Shown here piece after piece: positions 2,322 to 17,107 of a DNA stretch of 64,000 nt (positions are counted from its first letter, which is position 1; every line of letters begins with the position of its first letter). The stretch is from NCBI RefSeq assembly GCF_041886205.1, contig NZ_CP169029.1; one strand, given 5' to 3'. Under the pieces are notes generated by a model, which saw nothing but the letters and a program-made list of their open reading frames with translations, was not told where the DNA came from and did no database searches. A program made the translations under genes and the position numbers. Source of the stretch: Escherichia coli (GTDB taxonomy: Bacteria; Pseudomonadota; Gammaproteobacteria; Enterobacterales; Enterobacteriaceae).

Positions 2322-4370
2322 ATGAACATGTTTTTTAGGCTTACCGCGTTAGCTGGCCTGCTTGCAATAGCAGGCCAGACCTTCGCTGTAGAAGATATCA
2401 CGCGTGCTGATCAAATTCCGGTATTAAAGGAAGAGACGCAGCATGCGACGGTAAGTGAGCGCGTAACGTCGCGCTTCACCCGTTCTCATTATCGCCAGTT
2501 CGACCTCGATCAGGCATTTTCGGCCAAAATCTTTGACCGCTACCTGAATCTGCTCGATTACAGCCACAATGTGCTGCTGGCAAGCGATGTTGAACAGTTC
2601 GCGAAAAAGAAAACCGAGTTAGGCGATGAATTGCGTTCAGGCAAACTCGACGTTTTCTACGATCTCTACAATCTGGCGCAAAAGCGCCGTTTTGAACGTT
2701 ACCAGTACGCTTTGTCGGTACTGGAAAAGCCGATGGATTTCACCGGCAACGACACTTATAACCTTGACCGCAGCAAAGCGCCCTGGCCGAAAAACGAGGC
2801 TGAGTTGAACGCGCTGTGGGACAGTAAAGTCAAATTCGACGAGTTAAGCCTGAAGCTGGCAGGAAAAACGGATAAAGAAATTCGTGAAACCCTGACACGC
2901 CGCTACAAATTTGCCATTCGTCGTCTGGCGCAAACCAACAGCGAAGATGTTTTCTCGCTGGCAATGACGGCGTTTGCGCGTGAAATCGACCCGCATACCA
3001 ACTATCTTTCCCCGCGTAATACCGAACAGTTCAACACTGAAATGAGTTTGTCGCTGGAAGGTATTGGCGCAGTGCTGCAAATGGATGATGACTACACCGT
3101 TATCAATTCGATGGTGGCAGGTGGTCCGGCAGCGAAGAGTAAAGCTATCAGCGTTGGTGACAAAATTGTCGGTGTTGGTCAAACAGGCAAGCCGATGGTT
3201 GACGTGATTGGCTGGCGTCTTGATGATGTGGTTGCCTTAATTAAAGGGCCGAAGGGCAGTAAAGTTCGTCTGGAAATTTTACCTGCTGGTAAAGGGACCA
3301 AGACCCGCACTGTAACATTGACCCGTGAACGTATTCGTCTCGAAGACCGCGCGGTTAAAATGTCGGTGAAGACCGTCGGTAAAGAGAAAGTCGGCGTGCT
3401 GGATATTCCGGGCTTCTATGTGGGTTTGACAGACGATGTCAAAGTTCAACTGCAGAAACTGGAAAAACAGAATGTCAGCAGTGTGATCATCGACCTGCGT
3501 AGCAATGGCGGTGGGGCGTTGACCGAAGCGGTATCGCTCTCCGGTCTGTTTATTCCTGCGGGTCCCATTGTTCAGGTCCGCGATAACAACGGCAAGGTTC
3601 GTGAAGACAGCGATACCGACGGGCAGGTGTTCTTTAAAGGCCCGCTGGTGGTACTGGTTGACCGTTTCAGTGCTTCGGCTTCAGAAATCTTTGCCGCGGC
3701 AATGCAGGATTACGGTCGTGCGCTGGTTGTTGGTGAACCGACGTTTGGTAAAGGCACCGTTCAGCAATACCGTTCATTGAACCGTATTTACGATCAGATG
3801 TTACGTCCTGAATGGCCAGCGCTGGGTTCTGTGCAGTACACGATCCAGAAATTCTATCGCGTTAACGGCGGCAGTACGCAACGTAAAGGCGTAACGCCAG
3901 ACATCATCATGCCGACGGGTAATGAAGAAACGGAAACGGGTGAGAAATTCGAAGATAACGCGCTGCCGTGGGATAGCATTGATGCCGCGACTTATGTGAA
4001 ATCAGGCGATTTAACGGCCTTTGGGCCGGAGCTGCTGAAGGAACATAATGCGCGTATCGCGAAAGATCCTGAGTTCCAGAACATCATGAAGGATATCGCG
4101 CGCTTCAACGCTATGAAGGACAAGCGCAATATCGTTTCTCTGAACTACGCTGTGCGTGAGAAAGAGAATAATGAAGATGATGCGACGCGTCTGGCGCGTT
4201 TGAACGAACGCTTTAAACGCGAAGGTAAACCGGAGTTGAAGAAGCTGGATGATCTACCGAAAGATTACCAGGAGCCGGATCCTTATCTGGATGAGACGGT
4301 GAATATCGCACTCGATCTGGCGAAGCTTGAAAAAGCCAGACCCGCGGAACAACCCGCTCCCGTCAAGTAA
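2322..4370 (+). CDS. prc: tail-specific periplasmic protease Prc (Tsp)
   Basis: ORF track 2274..4370; signal peptide MNMFFRLTALAGLLAIAGQTFA begins at internal ATG about 2322; PDZ and S41 peptidase regions recognised. Confidence 0.9.
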   Translation: MNMFFRLTALAGLLAIAGQTFAVEDITRADQIPVLKEETQHATVSERVTSRFTRSHYRQFDLDQAFSAKIFDRYLNLLDYSHNVLLASDVEQFAKKKTELGDELRSGKLDVFYDLYNLAQKRRFERYQYALSVLEKPMDFTGNDTYNLDRSKAPWPKNEAELNALWDSKVKFDELSLKLAGKTDKEIRETLTRRYKFAIRRLAQTNSEDVFSLAMTAFAREIDPHTNYLSPRNTEQFNTEMSLSLEGIGAVLQMDDDYTVINSMVAGGPAAKSKAISVGDKIVGVGQTGKPMVDVIGWRLDDVVALIKGPKGSKVRLEILPAGKGTKTRTVTLTRERIRLEDRAVKMSVKTVGKEKVGVLDIPGFYVGLTDDVKVQLQKLEKQNVSSVIIDLRSNGGGALTEAVSLSGLFIPAGPIVQVRDNNGKVREDSDTDGQVFFKGPLVVLVDRFSASASEIFAAAMQDYGRALVVGEPTFGKGTVQQYRSLNRIYDQMLRPEWPALGSVQYTIQKFYRVNGGSTQRKGVTPDIIMPTGNEETETGEKFEDNALPWDSIDAATYVKSGDLTAFGPELLKEHNARIAKDPEFQNIMKDIARFNAMKDKRNIVSLNYAVREKENNEDDATRLARLNERFKREGKPELKKLDDLPKDYQEPDPYLDETVNIALDLAKLEKARPAEQPAPVK

Positions 4371-6862: not shown

Positions 6863-7038
6863 AGGAATTTTATATCTTTGGTGAATAATCAACAGGGGTA
6901 TGATTCTAGCACTGATATTCACGGTGGATGTCGCAGAATTGTAACTAACCGGCAAAAGATGGATTGCGACCACCCTGGTGCGAAATTATAATAAAAAACA
7001 GTTCTGATTTTTATAAAACACTCGCAATGAGGTGATAA

Positions 7039-7830
7039 ATGGCTAACGCAGATCTGGATAAACAGCCTGATTCTGTATCTTCCGTGCTAAAAGTTTTTGG
7101 CATTTTGCAGGCGCTGGGTGAAGAGCGCGAAATAGGGATAACCGAGCTGTCGCAGCGCGTCATGATGTCAAAAAGCACCGTTTATCGCTTTTTACAGACC
7201 ATGAAAACCTTAGGTTATGTGGCGCAGGAAGGGGAGTCGGAGAAATATTCCCTGACCCTGAAATTGTTTGAACTGGGCGCTCGCGCGTTACAAAACGTCG
7301 ATTTAATTCGTAGCGCAGATATCCAGATGCGTGAGATCTCCCGCCTGACCAAAGAAACTATCCACCTCGGCGCACTGGACGAAGACAGTATTGTTTACAT
7401 TCACAAAATTGACTCTATGTACAATTTGCGCATGTATTCACGGATTGGGCGTCGTAATCCGCTGTACAGCACCGCGATTGGTAAGGTACTGCTGGCATGG
7501 CGCGATCGCGATGAAGTGAAGCAAATTCTTGAGGGCGTGGAGTATAAACGCAGTACCGAGCGGACCATCACCAGTACAGAAGCGTTATTACCCGTTCTGG
7601 ACCAGGTGCGCGAGCAGGGGTATGGCGAAGATAACGAAGAGCAGGAAGAAGGGCTGCGATGCATTGCGGTACCGGTATTTGATCGCTTTGGCGTGGTCAT
7701 TGCCGGTTTGAGCATCTCCTTCCCGACGTTGCGTTTCTCTGAAGAGCGTTTACAGGAATATGTCGCAATGTTGCATACCGCAGCGCGCAAAATTTCTGCC
7801 CAAATGGGTTATCACGACTATCCGTTCTGA
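7039..7830 (+). CDS. kdgR: IclR-family transcriptional repressor KdgR
   Basis: ORF track 263 aa; N-terminal HTH and IclR effector domain recognised. Confidence 0.9.
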   Translation: MANADLDKQPDSVSSVLKVFGILQALGEEREIGITELSQRVMMSKSTVYRFLQTMKTLGYVAQEGESEKYSLTLKLFELGARALQNVDLIRSADIQMREISRLTKETIHLGALDEDSIVYIHKIDSMYNLRMYSRIGRRNPLYSTAIGKVLLAWRDRDEVKQILEGVEYKRSTERTITSTEALLPVLDQVREQGYGEDNEEQEEGLRCIAVPVFDRFGVVIAGLSISFPTLRFSEERLQEYVAMLHTAARKISAQMGYHDYPF

Positions 7831-7837
7831 TGAGAGT

Positions 7838-7876
7838 AAGAACCTGTCGGAATATCAAACAGACAGGTTCTTTATT
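7838..7876. terminator. terminator between kdgR and yobH
   Basis: gaacctgtc...gacaggttc hairpin followed by tttattt. Confidence 0.5.
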
Positions 7877-7972
7877 TAGCATGAGAAAAATAAAGTTGAA
7901 GGTGCGTTATATTAAACGCGCTTGCTATAAGAATATTTTACTCATGAGTGAGAATCTGGTTATTTATTACCC

Positions 7973-8212
7973 TTAACCATTATCGACCACGATATTGCTT
8001 TTACGTAACAGTGGGCAATCTGTTATCCCCAAGAAACCACTTTTAGTGTGCAAGTATTGTACCGTGCTGGTGCCTCTGGCAGTCAGATAGGTACATTGCA
8101 AACCTAATCCTGCGGCATTCTCTTTGCTTCCAATCAAAACGCCATATCCGCTGAGTAATAATCCTATCCATACCAGTGCTATCAGCATAACTGTGCGAAT
8201 GATGAATCGCAT
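7973..8212 (-). CDS. yobH: small secreted/membrane protein YobH
   Basis: ORF track 79 aa with hydrophobic N-terminus; position between kdgR and mgrB as in K-12. Confidence 0.7.
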   Translation of the reverse strand: MRFIIRTVMLIALVWIGLLLSGYGVLIGSKENAAGLGLQCTYLTARGTSTVQYLHTKSGFLGITDCPLLRKSNIVVDNG

Positions 8213-8370
8213 TACAACCTCTTCTCTTTTTATGTTCGCTTAATCGTAGCGGCAATATGCGCTGAAGCAAGCTACTCATTCCGAAAAAGCACGAATATCG
8301 ACATAGTTAGGCGCTGTTTAACTAACGCATGCTAGTTTAATGACATAAGGTAGGTGAAGCGGAGATTGGA

Positions 8371-8514
8371 GTGAAAAAGTTTCGATGGGTCGTTCTGGTT
8401 GTCGTGGTGTTGGCTTGCTTGCTGCTTTGGGCGCAGGTATTCAACATGATGTGCGATCAGGATGTACAATTTTTCAGCGGAATTTGTGCCATTAACCAGT
8501 TTATCCCGTGGTGA
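8371..8514 (+). CDS. mgrB: PhoQ-inhibiting small membrane protein MgrB (47 aa)
   Basis: Hand-translated GTG-start [50 protein letters not shown]; below ORF-track size cutoff; coordinates approximate. Confidence 0.75.
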
Positions 8515-8588
8515 TATCATTTTTTCAGCACTAGATTTTCTTCCTCTCCAGCAGTGGTAGAATAGCGCCTCTACTCAGAGGTGGTGAA

Positions 8589-8876
8589 ATGAACGAAGTT
8601 GTAAATTCAGGCGTGATGAACATTGCGTCTTTGGTTGTATCGGTGGTGGTTCTTCTTATCGGGCTCATCTTGTGGTTTTTTATCAATCGTGCCAGTTCTC
8701 GGACTAACGAACAGATTGAACTGCTTGAGGCGTTGCTGGATCAGCAAAAACGTCAAAATGCACTGTTACGTCGTTTGTGCGAAGCAAACGAACCTGAGAA
8801 AGCAGATAAAAAGACCGTTGAGAGTCAAAAATCGGTTGAAGACGAAGATATTATTCGTCTGGTCGCCGAACGATAA
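8589..8876 (+). CDS. yebO: small membrane protein YebO
   Basis: ORF track 95 aa with single N-terminal TM helix; conserved position. Confidence 0.75.
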   Translation: MNEVVNSGVMNIASLVVSVVVLLIGLILWFFINRASSRTNEQIELLEALLDQQKRQNALLRRLCEANEPEKADKKTVESQKSVEDEDIIRLVAER

Positions 8877-8888
8877 TCCTTCCTCAAT

Positions 8889-8925
8889 CTTGAGTAACCC
8901 CGTCGTTGAAGGGTTACTCAATTCA
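8889..8925 (+). terminator. intrinsic terminator after yebO
   Basis: gagtaaccc-cgtcgttgaa-gggttactc hairpin just after yebO stop. Confidence 0.5.
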
Positions 8926-9544
8926 TCCTGATTATACGCACTGCCATGGTGCAACTGCTTCAAATTAAAACTCTGGTCTGACTTCAAATAATTATCATAT
9001 TATTTATTTGCGTAACGGGATATCAGAAAAAGATATTTTCCTCATTAATTTATTAGGATGTTTACATCGGATTTGTGATTAAGCGTGGTATTATTTATTA
9101 GCGAAACGTTTCTCTCTTGATTTTTTGCTCATTCATCAATTTTTCTTATTTTAAATTTTCAATCCCTTTGGGGATTGACTTCTCTTTAGGGTAATTGATA
9201 GCCGTTAACTGACTGTTTTATGAGAAAAAGTGATATAACTTTTTATTCATTGCATAGCAAAAAATGTGATATTGCACGCACTATGTAATAACTTCTCCCA
9301 CTGGCCTGGAACAACTGAACTTATTGAACTATGTTAGAAACTACGCCAGTTTAAGTATCTGCCTGAACTGGCAAGGTTAAGCACAATGATATATCGGCGC
9401 GTATTCCGTTGCATAAGTGTGCAAAAAAAGTGGAAGACGTATCGAGATTTGTGCGTCTGATCGAGACATGTTTAAAAATGGCTTGCCATAATTAACGTTG
9501 TATGTGATAACAGATTTCGGGTTAAACGAGGTACAGTTCTGTTT

Positions 9545-9688
9545 ATGTGTGGCATTTTCAGTAAAGAAGTCCTGAGTAAACACGTTGACGTTGAATACCG
9601 CTTCTCTGCCGAGCCTTATATTGGTGCCTCATGCAGTAATGTGTCAGTTTTATCTATGTTATGCCTGCGGGCGAAGAAAACAATCTAA
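9545..9688 (+). CDS. yobF: small protein YobF (47 aa), co-transcribed with cspC
   Basis: Hand-translated [47 protein letters not shown]; immediately upstream of cspC; coordinates approximate. Confidence 0.7.
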
Positions 9689-9700
9689 GGAATTTTTCAA

Positions 9701-9910
9701 ATGGCAAAGATTAAAGGTCAGGTTAAGTGGTTCAATGAGTCTAAAGGTTTTGGCTTCATTACTCCGGCTGATGGCAGCAAAGACGTGTTCGTACACTTCT
9801 CCGCTATCCAGGGTAATGGCTTCAAAACTCTGGCTGAAGGTCAGAACGTTGAGTTCGAAATTCAGGACGGCCAGAAAGGTCCGGCAGCTGTTAACGTAAC
9901 AGCTATCTGA
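9701..9910 (+). CDS. cspC: cold-shock-like protein CspC
   Basis: ORF track 69 aa; CSD with RNP motifs KGFGFI and VFVHF. Confidence 0.95.
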
Positions 9911-9955
9911 TCGAATCCACTGATCTGAAGTGTGAATACGCTTCAATCTCGCTAT

Positions 9956-9982
9956 AAAGCCTCGTCGAATGCGAGGCTTTTT
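9956..9982 (+). terminator. intrinsic terminator after cspC
   Basis: aagcctcg-tcgaatg-cgaggcttttt hairpin plus T-run. Confidence 0.55.
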
Positions 9983-10075
9983 ACTATGCTTTATCTTCGC
10001 TCCTGGCGTTCGGATATTTGCCCGCCGCGTGATTCGCGTTACACTTGCGGCCTTTAGTATCCTGCCGGAGTTGTC

Positions 10076-10885
10076 ATGTCTTTTTCCTGTCCACTTTGCC
10101 ATCAGCCTCTTTCGCGTGAAAAAAACAGCTATATCTGTCCCCAGCGACATCAGTTTGATATGGCGAAAGAAGGGTATGTCAATCTGCTGCCCGTTCAGCA
10201 TAAACGGTCTCGTGATCCGGGCGACAGCGCGGAAATGATGCAAGCACGCCGCGCATTCTTAGATGCCGGACATTATCAGCCGCTGCGTGATGCAATTGTC
10301 GCCCAACTGAGGGAACGGCTTGATGATAAGGCCACGGCGGTGCTAGATATTGGCTGTGGTGAAGGGTATTACACACACGCATTTGCCGATGCGTTGCCCG
10401 AAATCACCACGTTTGGTCTGGATGTTTCGAAGGTAGCGATAAAAGCGGCGGCGAAACGCTATCCGCAGGTCACTTTTTGTGTCGCTTCCAGCCACCGTTT
10501 GCCGTTTTCCGATACCAGTATGGACGCCATAATACGTATTTACGCGCCGTGTAAAGCAGAAGAATTAGCACGAGTAGTGAAGCCCGGCGGCTGGGTCATT
10601 ACTGCCACGCCGGGACCGCGACATTTGATGGAGCTGAAGGGGCTGATTTACAATGAAGTACATCTTCATGCACCTCATGCAGAACAACTGGAAGGTTTTA
10701 CATTACAGCAGAGTGCGGAGTTGTGTTATCCGATGCGTCTTCGCGGTGATGAAGCCGTCGCATTATTGCAGATGACGCCGTTTGCCTGGCGTGCGAAGCC
10801 AGAAGTCTGGCAAACACTGGCAGCAAAAGAAGTGTTCGACTGCCAGACGGACTTTAATATTCACCTCTGGCAGCGTTCTTATTAA
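10076..10885 (+). CDS. rlmA: 23S rRNA m1G745 methyltransferase RlmA
   Basis: ORF track 269 aa; N-terminal Cys4 zinc-finger (CPLC...CPQRH) and SAM-binding motif LDIGCGEG. Confidence 0.9.
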
Positions 10886-11448
10886 CCGTGGAAGTGCGTC
10901 CAGAGGATCTGGACGCCGATGCCGATCAGTACCAGCCCGCCGAGAATTTCCGCTTTTTTCCCAATAATTGAGCCGATAAAGCGACCAACCATCATCCCTA
11001 ATGTTGACATAATCAAGGTTGCACAACCAATGGCCAATGCGGTCGCGATAATGTTGACCTGCAGGAAAGCAAGACCAACACCCACAGCCATGGCATCCAG
11101 GCTGGTGGCAATCGCGGTGGTTACCAGTAGCCAGAAACCGTGTCGACGGCGCGGCTCTTCATCTTCATCATCTGCGCCACGAAAACCCTCAATAATCATT
11201 CGCCCGCCGAGGAATATCAGCAGCACAAACGCAATCCAGTGGTTCCATTCAAGGACAAACCGGCTGGCTAACATGCCCATTCCCCAGCCGATCAGCGGCG
11301 TCAGGGTTTCGACGGCACCAAAAATAAGGCCGGTTCGCAATGCTTCAGAAAATTTCGGTTTATGGAGGGTGGCACCTTTACCGATTGATGCAGCAAATGC
11401 ATCCATCGACATACCAAACGCAAGAAGAACAGTAGCAGTGATATTCAT
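10882..11448 (-). CDS. mntP: manganese efflux pump MntP
   Basis: ORF track 10882..11502; start moved to ATG giving 188 aa ([21 protein letters not shown]...); hydrophobic, duplicated DUF204-like halves. Confidence 0.85.
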
Positions 11449-11454
11449 GACAAT

Positions 11455-11685
11455 GTCCTGACCGGGGTATCCATAAAACACATCATCGCCCCCAGCAAAC
11501 ATGCATACATGAACAACAAGCCGCGATGGTTTTCGCGTTCATGCAGGCATAGCGATTGATGTGCATATGGTCTCGCCTGACTGAAAGTATTCAGTCCGTA
11601 CGTGCCACGTTTTGCAACGAGTATGTTGACACGTACATTTCCGGAATCTGGAAATCGGCTACTCCCCAAATGAGGGCGCAACCTT
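11455..11685 (-). promoter_or_regulatory. yybP-ykoY-type Mn(II) riboswitch in the mntP 5' leader
   Basis: Minus-strand leader contains GGGGAGUAGCCGAUUUCC near its 5' end, matching the conserved yybP-ykoY core; long structured leader before mntP ATG; boundaries approximate. Confidence 0.55.
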
Positions 11686-11810: not shown

Positions 11811-11870
11811 AATATAGCCTAAGCTATGTCTGATTATTAAAAATACACTAAACATAGCTTTGGCTAAATT
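11811..11870. promoter_or_regulatory. two MntR-box-like palindromic half-site pairs upstream of the mntP promoter
   Basis: aaTATAGCctaaGCTATGTct and AAACATAGCtttgGCTAaat resemble the MntR operator remembered as AAACATAGC-N4-GCTATGTTT; not verified. Confidence 0.3.
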
Positions 11871-11876
11871 CATAAC

Positions 11877-12335
11877 TTATTGAGTTGAAACGAGAAGCTT
11901 ATAAATTTTTTCCAGATCGTCGATATTTCGAACGCGGATTAACAGCCGACGCTGTTCTAATTGCATCACCAACACGCCATCTTCCGACAAGTTCATCGCT
12001 TTGATTCGGCTATATTCAATCCAGACATTGGCGAAGAAAAAACCTTTTTGTTTAAAGATGATCTTCGGAACGCGGATCCAGAATATATAAAAACCCATCA
12101 GAGCCAGTGCGCTTAATAACCATGTCGTTATTAACGCACCATGATTCGTGACGTTGTTATAGATAAGAATGACAATCAATCCGACGAAGATAACGCTATC
12201 GATGCGACCACGCCGGAGCAAAGGAATTGCCAGCAGGGTGGGGCCGTTACGGCGGGGCATGATGAACTGATCGTAGATCGCGAAGGCCAGGAGTGCGGCG
12301 ATGAAAAGAATCAGTATCAGGTCCGTGATTGTCAT
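11877..12335 (-). CDS. yobD: DUF986 inner-membrane protein YobD
   Basis: ORF track 152 aa, hydrophobic; conserved position downstream of manZ. Confidence 0.8.
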
Positions 12336-14116: not shown

Positions 14117-15088
14117 TTACTTATCGATTTTGCTGATCAGATCCATCATTTTCAGTTTCGGATCGGTGGAAACCTTACGGACTTCCAGCTCAATACCGCG
14201 TGCATTCAGTTTTTTGAACGCCTCGATATCTTTTTCATCAACCGAAACCGCGTTATTCACCTGGGTTTTACCCTGACGGAATGCCATACCACCGACGTTA
14301 ACAGAGGTGATTTTCACGCCGCCTTCAACGAGACGCTCTACATCTGTTGGGTTGGTAAATAACAGCATTACACGTTCGCCAGCATATTTCGGGTTGTTGT
14401 AGACGCGAATCATTTTGGCAACATCAACTACGTGTGCTGTTACGCCTGGAGGTGCAACCTGGGTGAGCAGTGTCTTACGAACGGTATCCGCAGCCACTTC
14501 ATCACTAACAACAATAATACGGGAGACATTGGTTTCTTTGGTCCAGCGGGTGGCGACCTGACCGTGAATCAGACGGTCGTCGATACGCGCAAGGCCAATA
14601 ACCATGTAGTCGTTTGGTCCCATTGGTTTTGCCGGAGTTGGAGCCGCTTTTGGTGCTGCGGCAGCGGGTGCTGGCGCGGCTTTTTCAACCGGTTTGGCTT
14701 TCAGAGCTTTCACGCCTTCACGGCCTGTTTCTACTGCCAGCGCAACCAGTTCATCAAAGCTTGGGTCATCATCACGGGCCATTAACGTTTCCACGAGCAT
14801 TGGAATGTTAACGCCTGCAATGACTTCATAATGCTCTTTGTCGACGACAATGCGGCTGGCAGCATTGAACGGGCTGCCTCCCCATGTATCAACGAGAAAC
14901 AGCACGCCTTTAGTGGTGTCGAGTTTTGCCAACTGAGCGTTGTACTTTTCAATCAGCGTTTCGGCATTTTCACCTGGAACGAAATCGATCCAGCCGACGT
15001 TTTCCTGCTCGCCTAACAGCATTTCTGCCGTTTTAAGCAACTGCTCTGCAGCCCAACCATGTGTGCCTATAACAATAGCAATGGTCAC
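14117..15088 (-). CDS. manX: PTS mannose transporter subunit IIAB
   Basis: ORF track 323 aa; Ala/Pro-rich linker between IIA and IIB domains. Confidence 0.9.
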   Translation of the reverse strand: MTIAIVIGTHGWAAEQLLKTAEMLLGEQENVGWIDFVPGENAETLIEKYNAQLAKLDTTKGVLFLVDTWGGSPFNAASRIVVDKEHYEVIAGVNIPMLVETLMARDDDPSFDELVALAVETGREGVKALKAKPVEKAAPAPAAAAPKAAPTPAKPMGPNDYMVIGLARIDDRLIHGQVATRWTKETNVSRIIVVSDEVAADTVRKTLLTQVAPPGVTAHVVDVAKMIRVYNNPKYAGERVMLLFTNPTDVERLVEGGVKITSVNVGGMAFRQGKTQVNNAVSVDEKDIEAFKKLNARGIELEVRKVSTDPKLKMMDLISKIDK

Positions 15089-15550
15089 TTGCTACCTCCT
15101 TTATTATCGTTAACACCTCAACGTGCCAGATGTATTTTTGAATCGTCGTCCACAATCGAATCGATTCAGATAAGGGCTACAACCAAAAACCCCTGCGTTT
15201 CGCGATTTATTTTAGATATCGAAAAAATTATTTTATGTGATGAAGATCCGTAATTTAACTTTCGATTAGCAGAAATTTCGAAAGGTAAAATATCCTTATC
15301 ACATTCGTTTGCAAAGGAAGGTAAATCTTTGCCAAATCAGAGGCGTCTCTGATATGTTTAACTCCCGTTTAACAACCATGGAGTATAGGGCAGTAGCCCG
15401 CAGTATGGATCGTCACCGACGTCATTTCAGCATCAGGCCTTTTAACGCCTGCCTTTCTGGCATTCTATGCCGCACCTTTCGTTTGCATTTTGTCGTTACG
15501 CCTGCATTATTTTTGGCGTCGAATAGCTATTCCTTAAGCAGGAGCTTGTC

Positions 15551-17107
15551 ATGGAATTCTTAATGGACCCCTCAATTTGGGCGGGGCTACTCACGCTTGT
15601 TGTTCTCGAAATTGTGCTGGGTATCGATAACCTGGTCTTCATCGCCATTCTTGCTGACAAACTGCCGCCAAAACAACGCGATAAAGCGCGTTTGCTGGGA
15701 TTATCACTGGCGCTGATTATGCGTCTGGGGCTGCTGTCGCTGATTTCATGGATGGTCACGCTGACCAAACCGCTATTTACCGTTATGGATTTCTCCTTCT
15801 CCGGACGCGACCTGATTATGTTGTTCGGGGGGATATTCTTGCTGTTCAAAGCAACAACCGAACTGCATGAACGGCTGGAAAACCGCGATCATGATTCCGG
15901 CCACGGTAAAGGCTACGCCAGTTTCTGGGTGGTCGTCACACAGATTGTCATCCTTGACGCCGTCTTCTCATTGGATGCGGTAATTACTGCAGTAGGGATG
16001 GTTAACCATCTGCCGGTGATGATGGCGGCGGTAGTGATTGCGATGGCGGTTATGCTGCTAGCATCGAAACCGCTGACGCGATTCGTTAACCAGCACCCCA
16101 CGGTGGTGGTGCTCTGTCTGAGCTTCCTGTTAATGATTGGTCTGAGTCTGGTGGCAGAAGGTTTCGGTTTCCACATTCCGAAAGGTTACCTGTATGCCGC
16201 GATTGGCTTTTCGATCATCATCGAAGTGTTTAACCAGATTGCGCGTCGCAACTTTATTCGTCATCAGTCGACTTTGCCGCTGCGAGCGCGTACTGCCGAT
16301 GCCATCCTGCGTTTGATGGGCGGGAAACGTCAGGCCAATGTCCAGCACGATGCCGATAACCCGATGCCGATGCCGATCCCGGAAGGTGCATTTGCCGAAG
16401 AAGAACGTTACATGATAAACGGCGTACTGACGCTGGCGTCGCGTTCTCTGCGCGGGATCATGACGCCGCGCGGTGAAATAAGCTGGGTTGACGCTAATCT
16501 CGGGGTCGATGAAATCCGCGAGCAACTGCTCTCTTCACCGCACAGTCTGTTCCCGGTATGTCGCGGTGAACTGGATGAAATCATCGGTATCGTACGTGCT
16601 AAAGAACTGCTGGTGGCGCTGGAGGAGGGCGTTGATGTGGCGGCGATTGCTTCGGCGTCTCCGGCGATTATCGTCCCGGAAACCCTCGATCCGATCAACC
16701 TGCTGGGCGTGCTGCGTCGTGCTCGCGGGAGCTTTGTTATCGTGACCAACGAGTTTGGTGTGGTACAAGGTCTGGTCACACCGCTGGATGTGCTGGAAGC
16801 GATAGCTGGTGAGTTCCCGGATGCTGACGAAACGCCAGAAATCATTACCGACGGTGACGGCTGGCTGGTAAAAGGCGGTACAGATTTGCATGCCTTGCAG
16901 CAGGCGCTTGATGTTGAGCACCTTGCCGATGACGATGATATCGCGACGGTCGCGGGCCTCGTGATCTCGGCAAATGGTCACATTCCCCGTGTGGGCGATG
17001 TGATTGATGTAGGGCCACTGCATATCACCATCATTGAAGCCAATGATTATCGTGTTGATCTGGTTCGCATTGTTAAAGAGCAACCGGCGCACGATGAAGA
17101 TGAGTAA
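15551..17107 (+). CDS. yoaE: TerC-family membrane protein with CBS and CorC domains, YoaE
   Basis: ORF track 518 aa; N-terminal TerC-like membrane domain, C-terminal CBS pair and CorC/HlyC region. Confidence 0.9.

Follow-up and report, generated by a model that had tools for sequence, protein, structure and literature searches.

MgrB inhibits PhoQ and thereby exerts negative feedback. The promoters of mgtA and phoPQ (P1) are said in citing papers to carry the canonical PhoP boxes. The promoter closest to the one analyzed here is that of yobG, the Salmonella counterpart of mgrB, for which Zwir et al. (2012; PMC3335776) report mapping data. For yobG, the box ACAGTTACTCCTGGTTTAA is DNase footprinted in the direct orientation and lies 12 nt 5' of the -10 hexamer TAATTT, while the transcription start was mapped with S1 nuclease (5 nt from the -10 hexamer to +1; 26-nt leader). 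A second box, GTTTTTAGGAATGATTCAC, in the reverse orientation near -62, is also footprinted there. The same source reports that activation of mgtA is independent of the alpha-CTD and argues for class II activation at promoters of architectures I and II (PMC3335776). In E. coli, phosphorylated PhoP (PhoP-P) binds an mgrB promoter fragment in vitro, and the fragment has served as a positive control in electrophoretic mobility shift assays (EMSA; PMC8355897). A full-text literature search for the sequence of the E. coli box returned nothing relevant, and Harari 2010 makes no mention of mgrB or yobG. Our expectation for the E. coli box is TAGTTAGGCGCTGTTTA, with a start site about 26 to 27 nt 5' of the GTG codon. 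The feature described below is the already known PhoP box of mgrB, a member of architecture I/II, and the outcome of the analysis is a corrected assignment of its half-sites and of the -10 hexamer, with no new biology.

The sequence analyzed (64,000 nt; hereafter, the window) is a stretch of an E. coli chromosome with the gene order yebQ-kdgR-yobH-mgrB-yebO-yobF-csp-rlmA. Its mgrB open reading frame (ORF) is annotated as "PhoP/PhoQ regulator MgrB" in RefSeq E. coli genomes, and the encoded protein belongs to a Pfam family (PF13998) with named homologs in Citrobacter, Salmonella, Klebsiella, Cronobacter, and other genera. Of the 5,426 complete E. coli genomes, 5,424 contain a match to a 1-kb query around the mgrB promoter (95 to 100% identity). 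The two divergent genes, yobH and mgrB, have a 158-bp intergenic region in common, and the elements assigned within and around it are listed in Table 1. No RNA family was detected at the coordinates of the mgrB promoter in an Rfam scan of positions 7000 to 11000. The scan located a cspA thermoregulator (RF01766; 132.9 bits) at 9525 to 9985 on the plus strand, spanning the leader and the coding region of the csp gene (9701 to 9910). This csp gene is labeled cspE in the RefSeq record used for comparison; we take the K-12 gene adjoining yobF to be cspC.

Table 1. Elements of the yobH-mgrB intergenic region and neighboring genes in the E. coli window, with the basis of each assignment
Feature	Position	Strand	Basis or remark
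kdgR	7039-7830	+	ORF list
yobH	7973-8212	-	ORF and RefSeq comparison; divergent neighbor of mgrB
Degenerate counterpart of Salmonella reverse PhoP box (CTTTTTCGGAATGAGTAGC)	8271-8289	-	Alignment to GTTTTTAGGAATGATTCAC, at about -62 in Salmonella
Promoter-distal PhoP half-site TAGTTA	8304-8309	+	Variant first repeat ("S2" type of Zwir et al.); conservation
Promoter-proximal PhoP half-site TGTTTA	8315-8320	+	Perfect consensus hexamer; conservation
CTAA, IS5 insertion site between box and -10	8322-8325		E. coli FXCREC035, CTAA duplicated
TG of putative extended -10 (TGn)	8330-8331	+	Conserved in 79/81 species; invariant in MAFFT alignment
-10 hexamer TAGTTT	8333-8338	+	12 nt 3' of box, as for Salmonella yobG TAATTT
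Predicted transcription start, C8344 or A8345	8344-8345	+	Homology to Salmonella yobG; leader of 26-27 nt
Shine-Dalgarno GGAG	8361-8364	+	6 nt 5' of GTG; cGGAG in nearly all orthologs
mgrB coding sequence	8371-8514	+	GTG start, 47 aa; ORF, RefSeq, Pfam PF13998

We consider it very likely that mgrB is transcribed from a PhoP-activated sigma-70 promoter composed of a PhoP box at 8304 to 8320 and an extended -10 element at 8330 to 8338, with a start at around 8344/8345. The basis for this assignment is the sequence itself, its spacing, its family-wide conservation, and the way it aligns, element by element, with the Salmonella promoter for which a footprint and an S1-mapped start are available. 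The stretch TAGTTA-GGCGC-TGTTTA (8304 to 8320) is the sole match to the pattern KGTTTA-N5-KGTTTA (up to two mismatches) in the yobH-mgrB intergenic region. Its two hexamers are directly repeated with a period of 11 bp and are separated by 5 nt, and both mismatches are in the distal repeat. The distance from TGTTTA to TAGTTT is exactly 12 nt (8321 to 8332), the box is in the direct orientation, and the spacing is the same in an ungapped alignment of 81 species (see below). When the intergenic regions of E. coli and Salmonella are globally aligned, the core is free of gaps; the alignment places the yobG box on 8303 to 8321 (CAGTTA of yobG on TAGTTA at 8304 to 8309), the yobG -10 hexamer on 8333 to 8338, the yobG start on C8344, and the Salmonella reverse box on 8271 to 8289 of the minus strand.

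The Salmonella yobG promoter is of architecture II. The two orthologous promoters share a box in the direct orientation with a variant first repeat, (C/T)AGTTA, followed by a consensus second repeat, (G/T)GTTTA. In both, 12 nt separate the box from a weak TAnTTT -10 hexamer that has a TG two bases upstream, the start is about 5 to 6 nt past the -10 hexamer (the E. coli start being taken from the alignment), and the leader is 26 to 27 nt long. They differ in the reverse box, which scores -1.8 bits in E. coli versus 8.2 bits in Salmonella with the PhoP weight matrix described below (TTTTTA is changed to TTTTTC and GATTCA to GAGTAG). Since the E. coli reverse box is degenerate, the E. coli mgrB promoter may act as a single-box promoter, i.e., one of architecture I. 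They also differ in the -10 hexamer, which is TAATTT in Salmonella and TAGTTT in E. coli. As in the architecture I promoters of mgtA and phoPQ (P1), a (T/G)GTTTA-N5-(T/G)GTTTA repeat takes the place of the -35 hexamer at a distance of 12 nt from the -10 hexamer. Class II activation is predicted for mgrB as for these two promoters. Unlike the boxes of mgtA and phoP, which consist of two near-perfect repeats (15 to 18 bits in leave-one-out scoring), the mgrB box is weak in its distal repeat and reaches 8 bits. Its weakness seems to be offset by the TG of the putative extended -10 element, which is conserved family-wide.

For a quantitative comparison, a PhoP position weight matrix (PWM) was derived from 24 footprinted activating boxes (Table 1 of Zwir et al. 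2012), with yobG left out against circularity. Positions 8303 to 8321 scored 8.0 bits, a weak score for a true site (leave-one-out range of the training sites, 7.1 to 22.1 bits). Among the approximately 128,000 positions of the window, this score ranks only 65th, and the yobG box, which is footprinted in Salmonella, scores only 3.0 bits; therefore, the matrix alone would not single out the mgrB box. The orthologous boxes have a median score of 5.8 bits and a median rank of 6th among the approximately 6,200 positions of their own 3-kb loci. The PWM is the weakest among the lines of evidence for the box at 8304 to 8320. As sole evidence, the PWM scan was dropped, a site at 8226 to 8244 outranking the true box within the intergenic region. 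The pattern search was likewise dropped as evidence on its own, since it is too permissive at two mismatches (32 matches found in the window versus 16 expected). Because the PWM alone ranks the true box 65th, the assignment of the half-sites relies on conservation and on the Salmonella footprint.

Several other positions of the window gave high PWM scores. The site at 8226 to 8244 (CTTTTTATGTTCGCTTAAT; plus strand; 9.55 bits, above the real mgrB box) adjoins the yobH start codon at about -109 from the mgrB start and shows low conservation. The probable source of this match is the yobH ribosome-binding region, whose complement is T-rich. The best PhoP PWM match of the whole window (15.2 bits) is ATGTTTAGTGTATTTTTAA at 11837 to 11855 on the minus strand, between a yobD-like ORF (11877 to 12335; minus strand) and an mntP-like ORF (10882 to 11502; minus strand); it is upstream of, and on the same strand as, the latter. 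At 15354 to 15372 (plus strand), ATGTTTAACTCCCGTTTAA contains two GTTTA pentamers with the exact 11-bp period and deviates from the canonical box at one position (11.9 bits). The site is intergenic, with a manX-like ORF (14117 to 15088; minus strand) on one side and an ORF of 518 aa (15551 to 17107; plus strand) on the other, approximately 180 nt 5' of the latter. On the basis of its letters, ATGTTTAACTCCCGTTTAA is a candidate PhoP site and a better match to the canonical box than that of mgrB.

The conservation of the promoter was assessed in the mgrB loci of E. coli and 80 further Enterobacteriaceae species (81 in total; one genome per species). The genera covered include Citrobacter, Salmonella, Klebsiella, Raoultella, Enterobacter, Lelliottia, and Kluyvera as well as Kosakonia, Phytobacter, Buttiauxella, Cedecea, Pluralibacter, Superficieibacter, and Trabulsiella. 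The gene yobH is divergent to mgrB in 79 of the 81 loci, and the intergenic length is 156 to 168 bp in 78 of them. All 81 promoters carry GTTTA in the stretch 30 to 85 nt 5' of the start codon (exactly one copy in 79), where the chance expectation is roughly 0.05 per sequence. We anchored an ungapped alignment of the 81 sequences on this proximal GTTTA. At 10 to 7 nt upstream of the anchor, the distal G, T, T, and A are conserved in 78, 81, 75, and 81 of the 81 sequences, respectively, so that the distal repeat precedes the proximal one by exactly 11 bp. Downstream of the anchor, TG occurs at +14/+15 in 79 species; the T, A, and T of TAnnnT occur at +17, +18, and +22 in 73, 81, and 80 species, with variable inner positions; and A occurs at +29 in 68 species. 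Flanking columns mostly contain about 0.1 to 0.6 bits. A gapped MAFFT alignment of 24 genera, which is independent of the anchoring on GTTTA, has invariant columns at 8306, 8307, 8309, 8316 to 8320, 8330, 8331, 8334, and 8338 and nearly invariant columns at 8308 and 8333. The phylogenetic footprint is therefore one in which the half-sites and their spacing are kept and the flanks diverge.

The hexamer at the -10 position is spelled in many ways among the 81 species (TAACCT in 34, TAATTT in 9, TATCCT in 9, TAAATT in 5, TACGCT in 4, and other spellings in the rest), TAGTTT being found in two. The E. coli form of the sequence over the -10 hexamer is TAGTTTAA; the Enterobacter-type form, in which TAnnnT is kept, is TAACCTGG. 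These spellings bear on an earlier note on this DNA, made from the letters without database searches, which had described a PhoP-box-like direct repeat of two GTTTA-type hexamers in the mgrB promoter. The string quoted there, ctGTTTAactaacgcatgctaGTTTAAtga, is indeed present at 8314 to 8343, i.e., within the interval 8305 to 8370 given for the repeat and 28 nt 5' of the mgrB GTG (8371). At the level of the gene, the note was right: the promoter is that of mgrB, is PhoP activated according to the literature, and contains a PhoP box. Its first hexamer, TGTTTA at 8315 to 8320, is the proximal half-site. The two GTTTA pentamers were, however, wrongly paired, the real partner being TAGTTA 11 bp upstream, which lies at the very edge of that interval and was overlooked. 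The second GTTTA (8335 to 8339) is inside the -10 hexamer TAGTTT and the base that follows it. GTTTA occurs at this position in two of the 81 species (E. coli and one Escherichia sp.) and is absent from the other 79. It is best read not as a PhoP half-site but as the way in which the -10 hexamer plus two bases is spelled in Escherichia (TAGTTTaa), and it is the change from the Salmonella TAATTT to TAGTTT that creates it. Of the checks proposed in the note, the PWM scan gave a modest match at 8303 to 8321, and the comparison with a mapped promoter (Salmonella yobG) led to the same hexamers, TAGTTA and TGTTTA, a different pair from the one described.

The doubt about spacing that accompanied the note was well placed, and the spacing is a difficulty for a PhoP box composed of the GTTTA at 8316 and that at 8335. 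These pentamers are 19 bp apart from start to start, leaving a 14-nt gap that would be an unusually long spacer, and a period of 19 bp rather than the 11 bp of a PhoP box puts the two sites on different faces of the helix. Each of the two hexamers fits (T/G)GTTTA(A) well and is located upstream of a PhoP-activated gene, but the frames that cover them score -4.7 bits (8314 to 8332), -7.8 bits (8322 to 8340), and -16.5 bits (8333 to 8351). In addition, the second pentamer is confined to 2 of 81 promoters and overlaps the conserved TAnnnT of the -10 hexamer, and the footprint listed for Salmonella covers the upstream pair (TAGTTA and TGTTTA in E. coli). GTTTA occurs 151 times on both strands of the window. 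Six pairs of copies on one strand lie within 25 nt of each other, which is not above chance (3.2 ± 1.7 expected from composition-preserving block shuffles). The "direct repeat" of GTTTA is therefore no significant or meaningful unit, and we regard a PhoP box made of these two pentamers as extremely unlikely. A milder version would keep the box at 8304 to 8320 as the activating site and would treat the Escherichia GTTTAA over the -10 hexamer as an added low-affinity PhoP half-site that damps or tunes mgrB at high levels of PhoP-P. The hexamer AGTTTA would make a good half-site, all E. coli genomes sampled carry it, and PhoP boxes over the -10 hexamer with a presumed repressive role are described in the promoter data of Zwir et al. 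(2012; PMC3335776), e.g., the second box of ugtL. Fixation within E. coli is, however, explained by the role of these letters as the -10 hexamer, and the half-site has no partner 11 bp away (TAACGC at 8323 to 8328 matches at one of six positions, and the frame scores -7.8 bits). Since it is also not conserved outside Escherichia and is read from its letters only, we consider such tuning very improbable.

Finally, the hexamers could be chance products of an A/T-rich promoter that contains no functional PhoP site, with mgrB being regulated indirectly. The abundance of two-mismatch box matches in the window and the low PWM rank of the mgrB box are compatible with this possibility. The half-sites are, however, invariant at fixed registers (11 bp between repeats and 12 nt to the -10 hexamer) across 81 species, the Salmonella ortholog is among the footprinted promoters (PMC3335776), and binding of PhoP to the E. 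coli promoter is reported among the EMSA data of another study (PMC8355897). The absence of any functional site is thus next to impossible in our judgment, and the box at 8304 to 8320 is the reading on which the following is built.

The extended -10 element assigned here is TGcTAGTTT (8330 to 8338). Given that the TG is conserved in 79 of 81 species and is located one base 5' of the -10 hexamer, we infer that the mgrB promoter is of the extended -10 type and that the TG is functional. This interpretation fits with the absence of a -35 hexamer and the weakness of the -10 hexamer. Like extended -10 (TGn) sigma-70 promoters, the mgrB promoter has TG one base 5' of TAnnnT and no recognizable -35 hexamer; unlike them, it is still activator dependent according to the literature. 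The tables of Zwir et al. (2012; PMC3335776) do not point out the TG. A simple sigma-70 scan of 8150 to 8620 detected no promoter upstream of mgrB, a null result that is uninformative because an activator-dependent promoter without a -35 hexamer is concerned.

These elements suggest the following course of events. A phosphorylated PhoP dimer would bind head to tail on TAGTTA-N5-TGTTTA (8304 to 8320). The repeat would occupy the place of the -35 hexamer and end 12 nt 5' of the -10 hexamer, an arrangement indicative of class II-type activation. The sigma-70 holoenzyme would read TGcTAGTTT and initiate at approximately 8344/8345, which would give a leader of 26 to 27 nt up to the GTG at 8371, and GGAG (8361 to 8364) would serve this GTG in translation. 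The MgrB thus produced would inhibit PhoQ and close the negative feedback loop. For E. coli itself, we infer where PhoP makes contact, where exactly transcription starts, and that the mechanism is of class II.

The region upstream of the mgrB box also contains a conserved block. The core TTTAGGAAT of 8271 to 8289 is kept across the family, although the PhoP-like half-sites are degraded in E. coli. On the yobH strand (8271 to 8289 and 8225 to 8270), the arrangement TTTAGGAAT-N6-CTTGTTT(-35)-N16-TAnnnT(-10) is conserved family-wide. The pair CTTGTTT-16 nt-TAnnnT looks like the yobH promoter, with the TTTAGGAAT block directly upstream of it. The block at 8271 to 8289, whose Salmonella counterpart is footprinted by PhoP and assigned to mgrB as its second, reverse box, might be a family-wide shared element of the yobH promoter (placed where a class I activator or an UP element would be expected), a suggestion that we regard as unlikely; if true, PhoP or another factor could couple yobH to mgrB. 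A self-limiting PhoP half-site formed by the Escherichia-specific GTTTAA at the mgrB -10 hexamer is less likely still. PhoP regulation of yobH via the reverse box was considered and set aside; yobH is reported to be seemingly not PhoP regulated in Salmonella (Banda et al. 2019). Near kdgR, a possible KdgR operator at the conserved CTTGTTTCA was considered and dropped, no second half-site being apparent by eye at a plausible spacing from it.

Within E. coli, identity to the window over a 111-bp promoter segment is 99% or higher in 1,895 of 5,422 genomes and 95 to 99% in the rest. In the four promoter variants sampled, the differences are confined to 8273, 8282, and 8359, none of which belongs to the box, the TG, or the -10 hexamer. 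In colistin-resistant isolates from dogs, g98t, c89t, and a12g have been reported as mgrB "promoter mutations" (PMC11111722). Counted from the GTG (-98, -89, and -12), these correspond to 8273, 8282, and 8359, where the window has T, C, and G, respectively. The variants at -98, -89, and -12 fall in neither the box nor the -10 hexamer and look like common polymorphisms rather than resistance mutations. A split BLAST match was examined as a possible insertion sequence in the promoter and was rejected, as the element proved to be an IS1 that interrupts yobH at its 3' end. An IS1 is inserted there in at least one E. coli genome and probably in two (2015C-3121 and JNEC-KY203); in 2015C-3121, it lengthens the annotated YobH ORF, and the mgrB promoter is intact.

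An insertion within the promoter was found in the clinical E. coli genome FXCREC035 (locus L083; approximately 2558 to 3770), in which IS5 is located at CTAA (8322 to 8325) with duplication of the target. This position is that of the laboratory-evolved -46::IS5 allele (Table 1 of PMC8483737), a loss-of-function mgrB allele that arose under trimethoprim selection (Patel and Matange, eLife 2021; PMC8483737). The insertion parts the box from the -10 hexamer, while the second GTTTA and the -10 hexamer stay attached to mgrB. The IS5 allele fits with activation through the upstream pair, although the insertion could lower mgrB expression in other ways. The CTAA at 8322 to 8325 appears to be a recurrent IS5 hotspot at which mgrB is uncoupled from PhoP.

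The gene mgrB acts as a feedback brake on PhoQ/PhoP, and its loss leads to colistin resistance and trimethoprim tolerance. In the corrected map, with the PhoP box at 8304 to 8320, the putative extended -10 element at 8330 to 8338, and the predicted start at approximately 8344, the space between the box and the -10 hexamer is exactly where the apparent IS5 hotspot CTAA is located.
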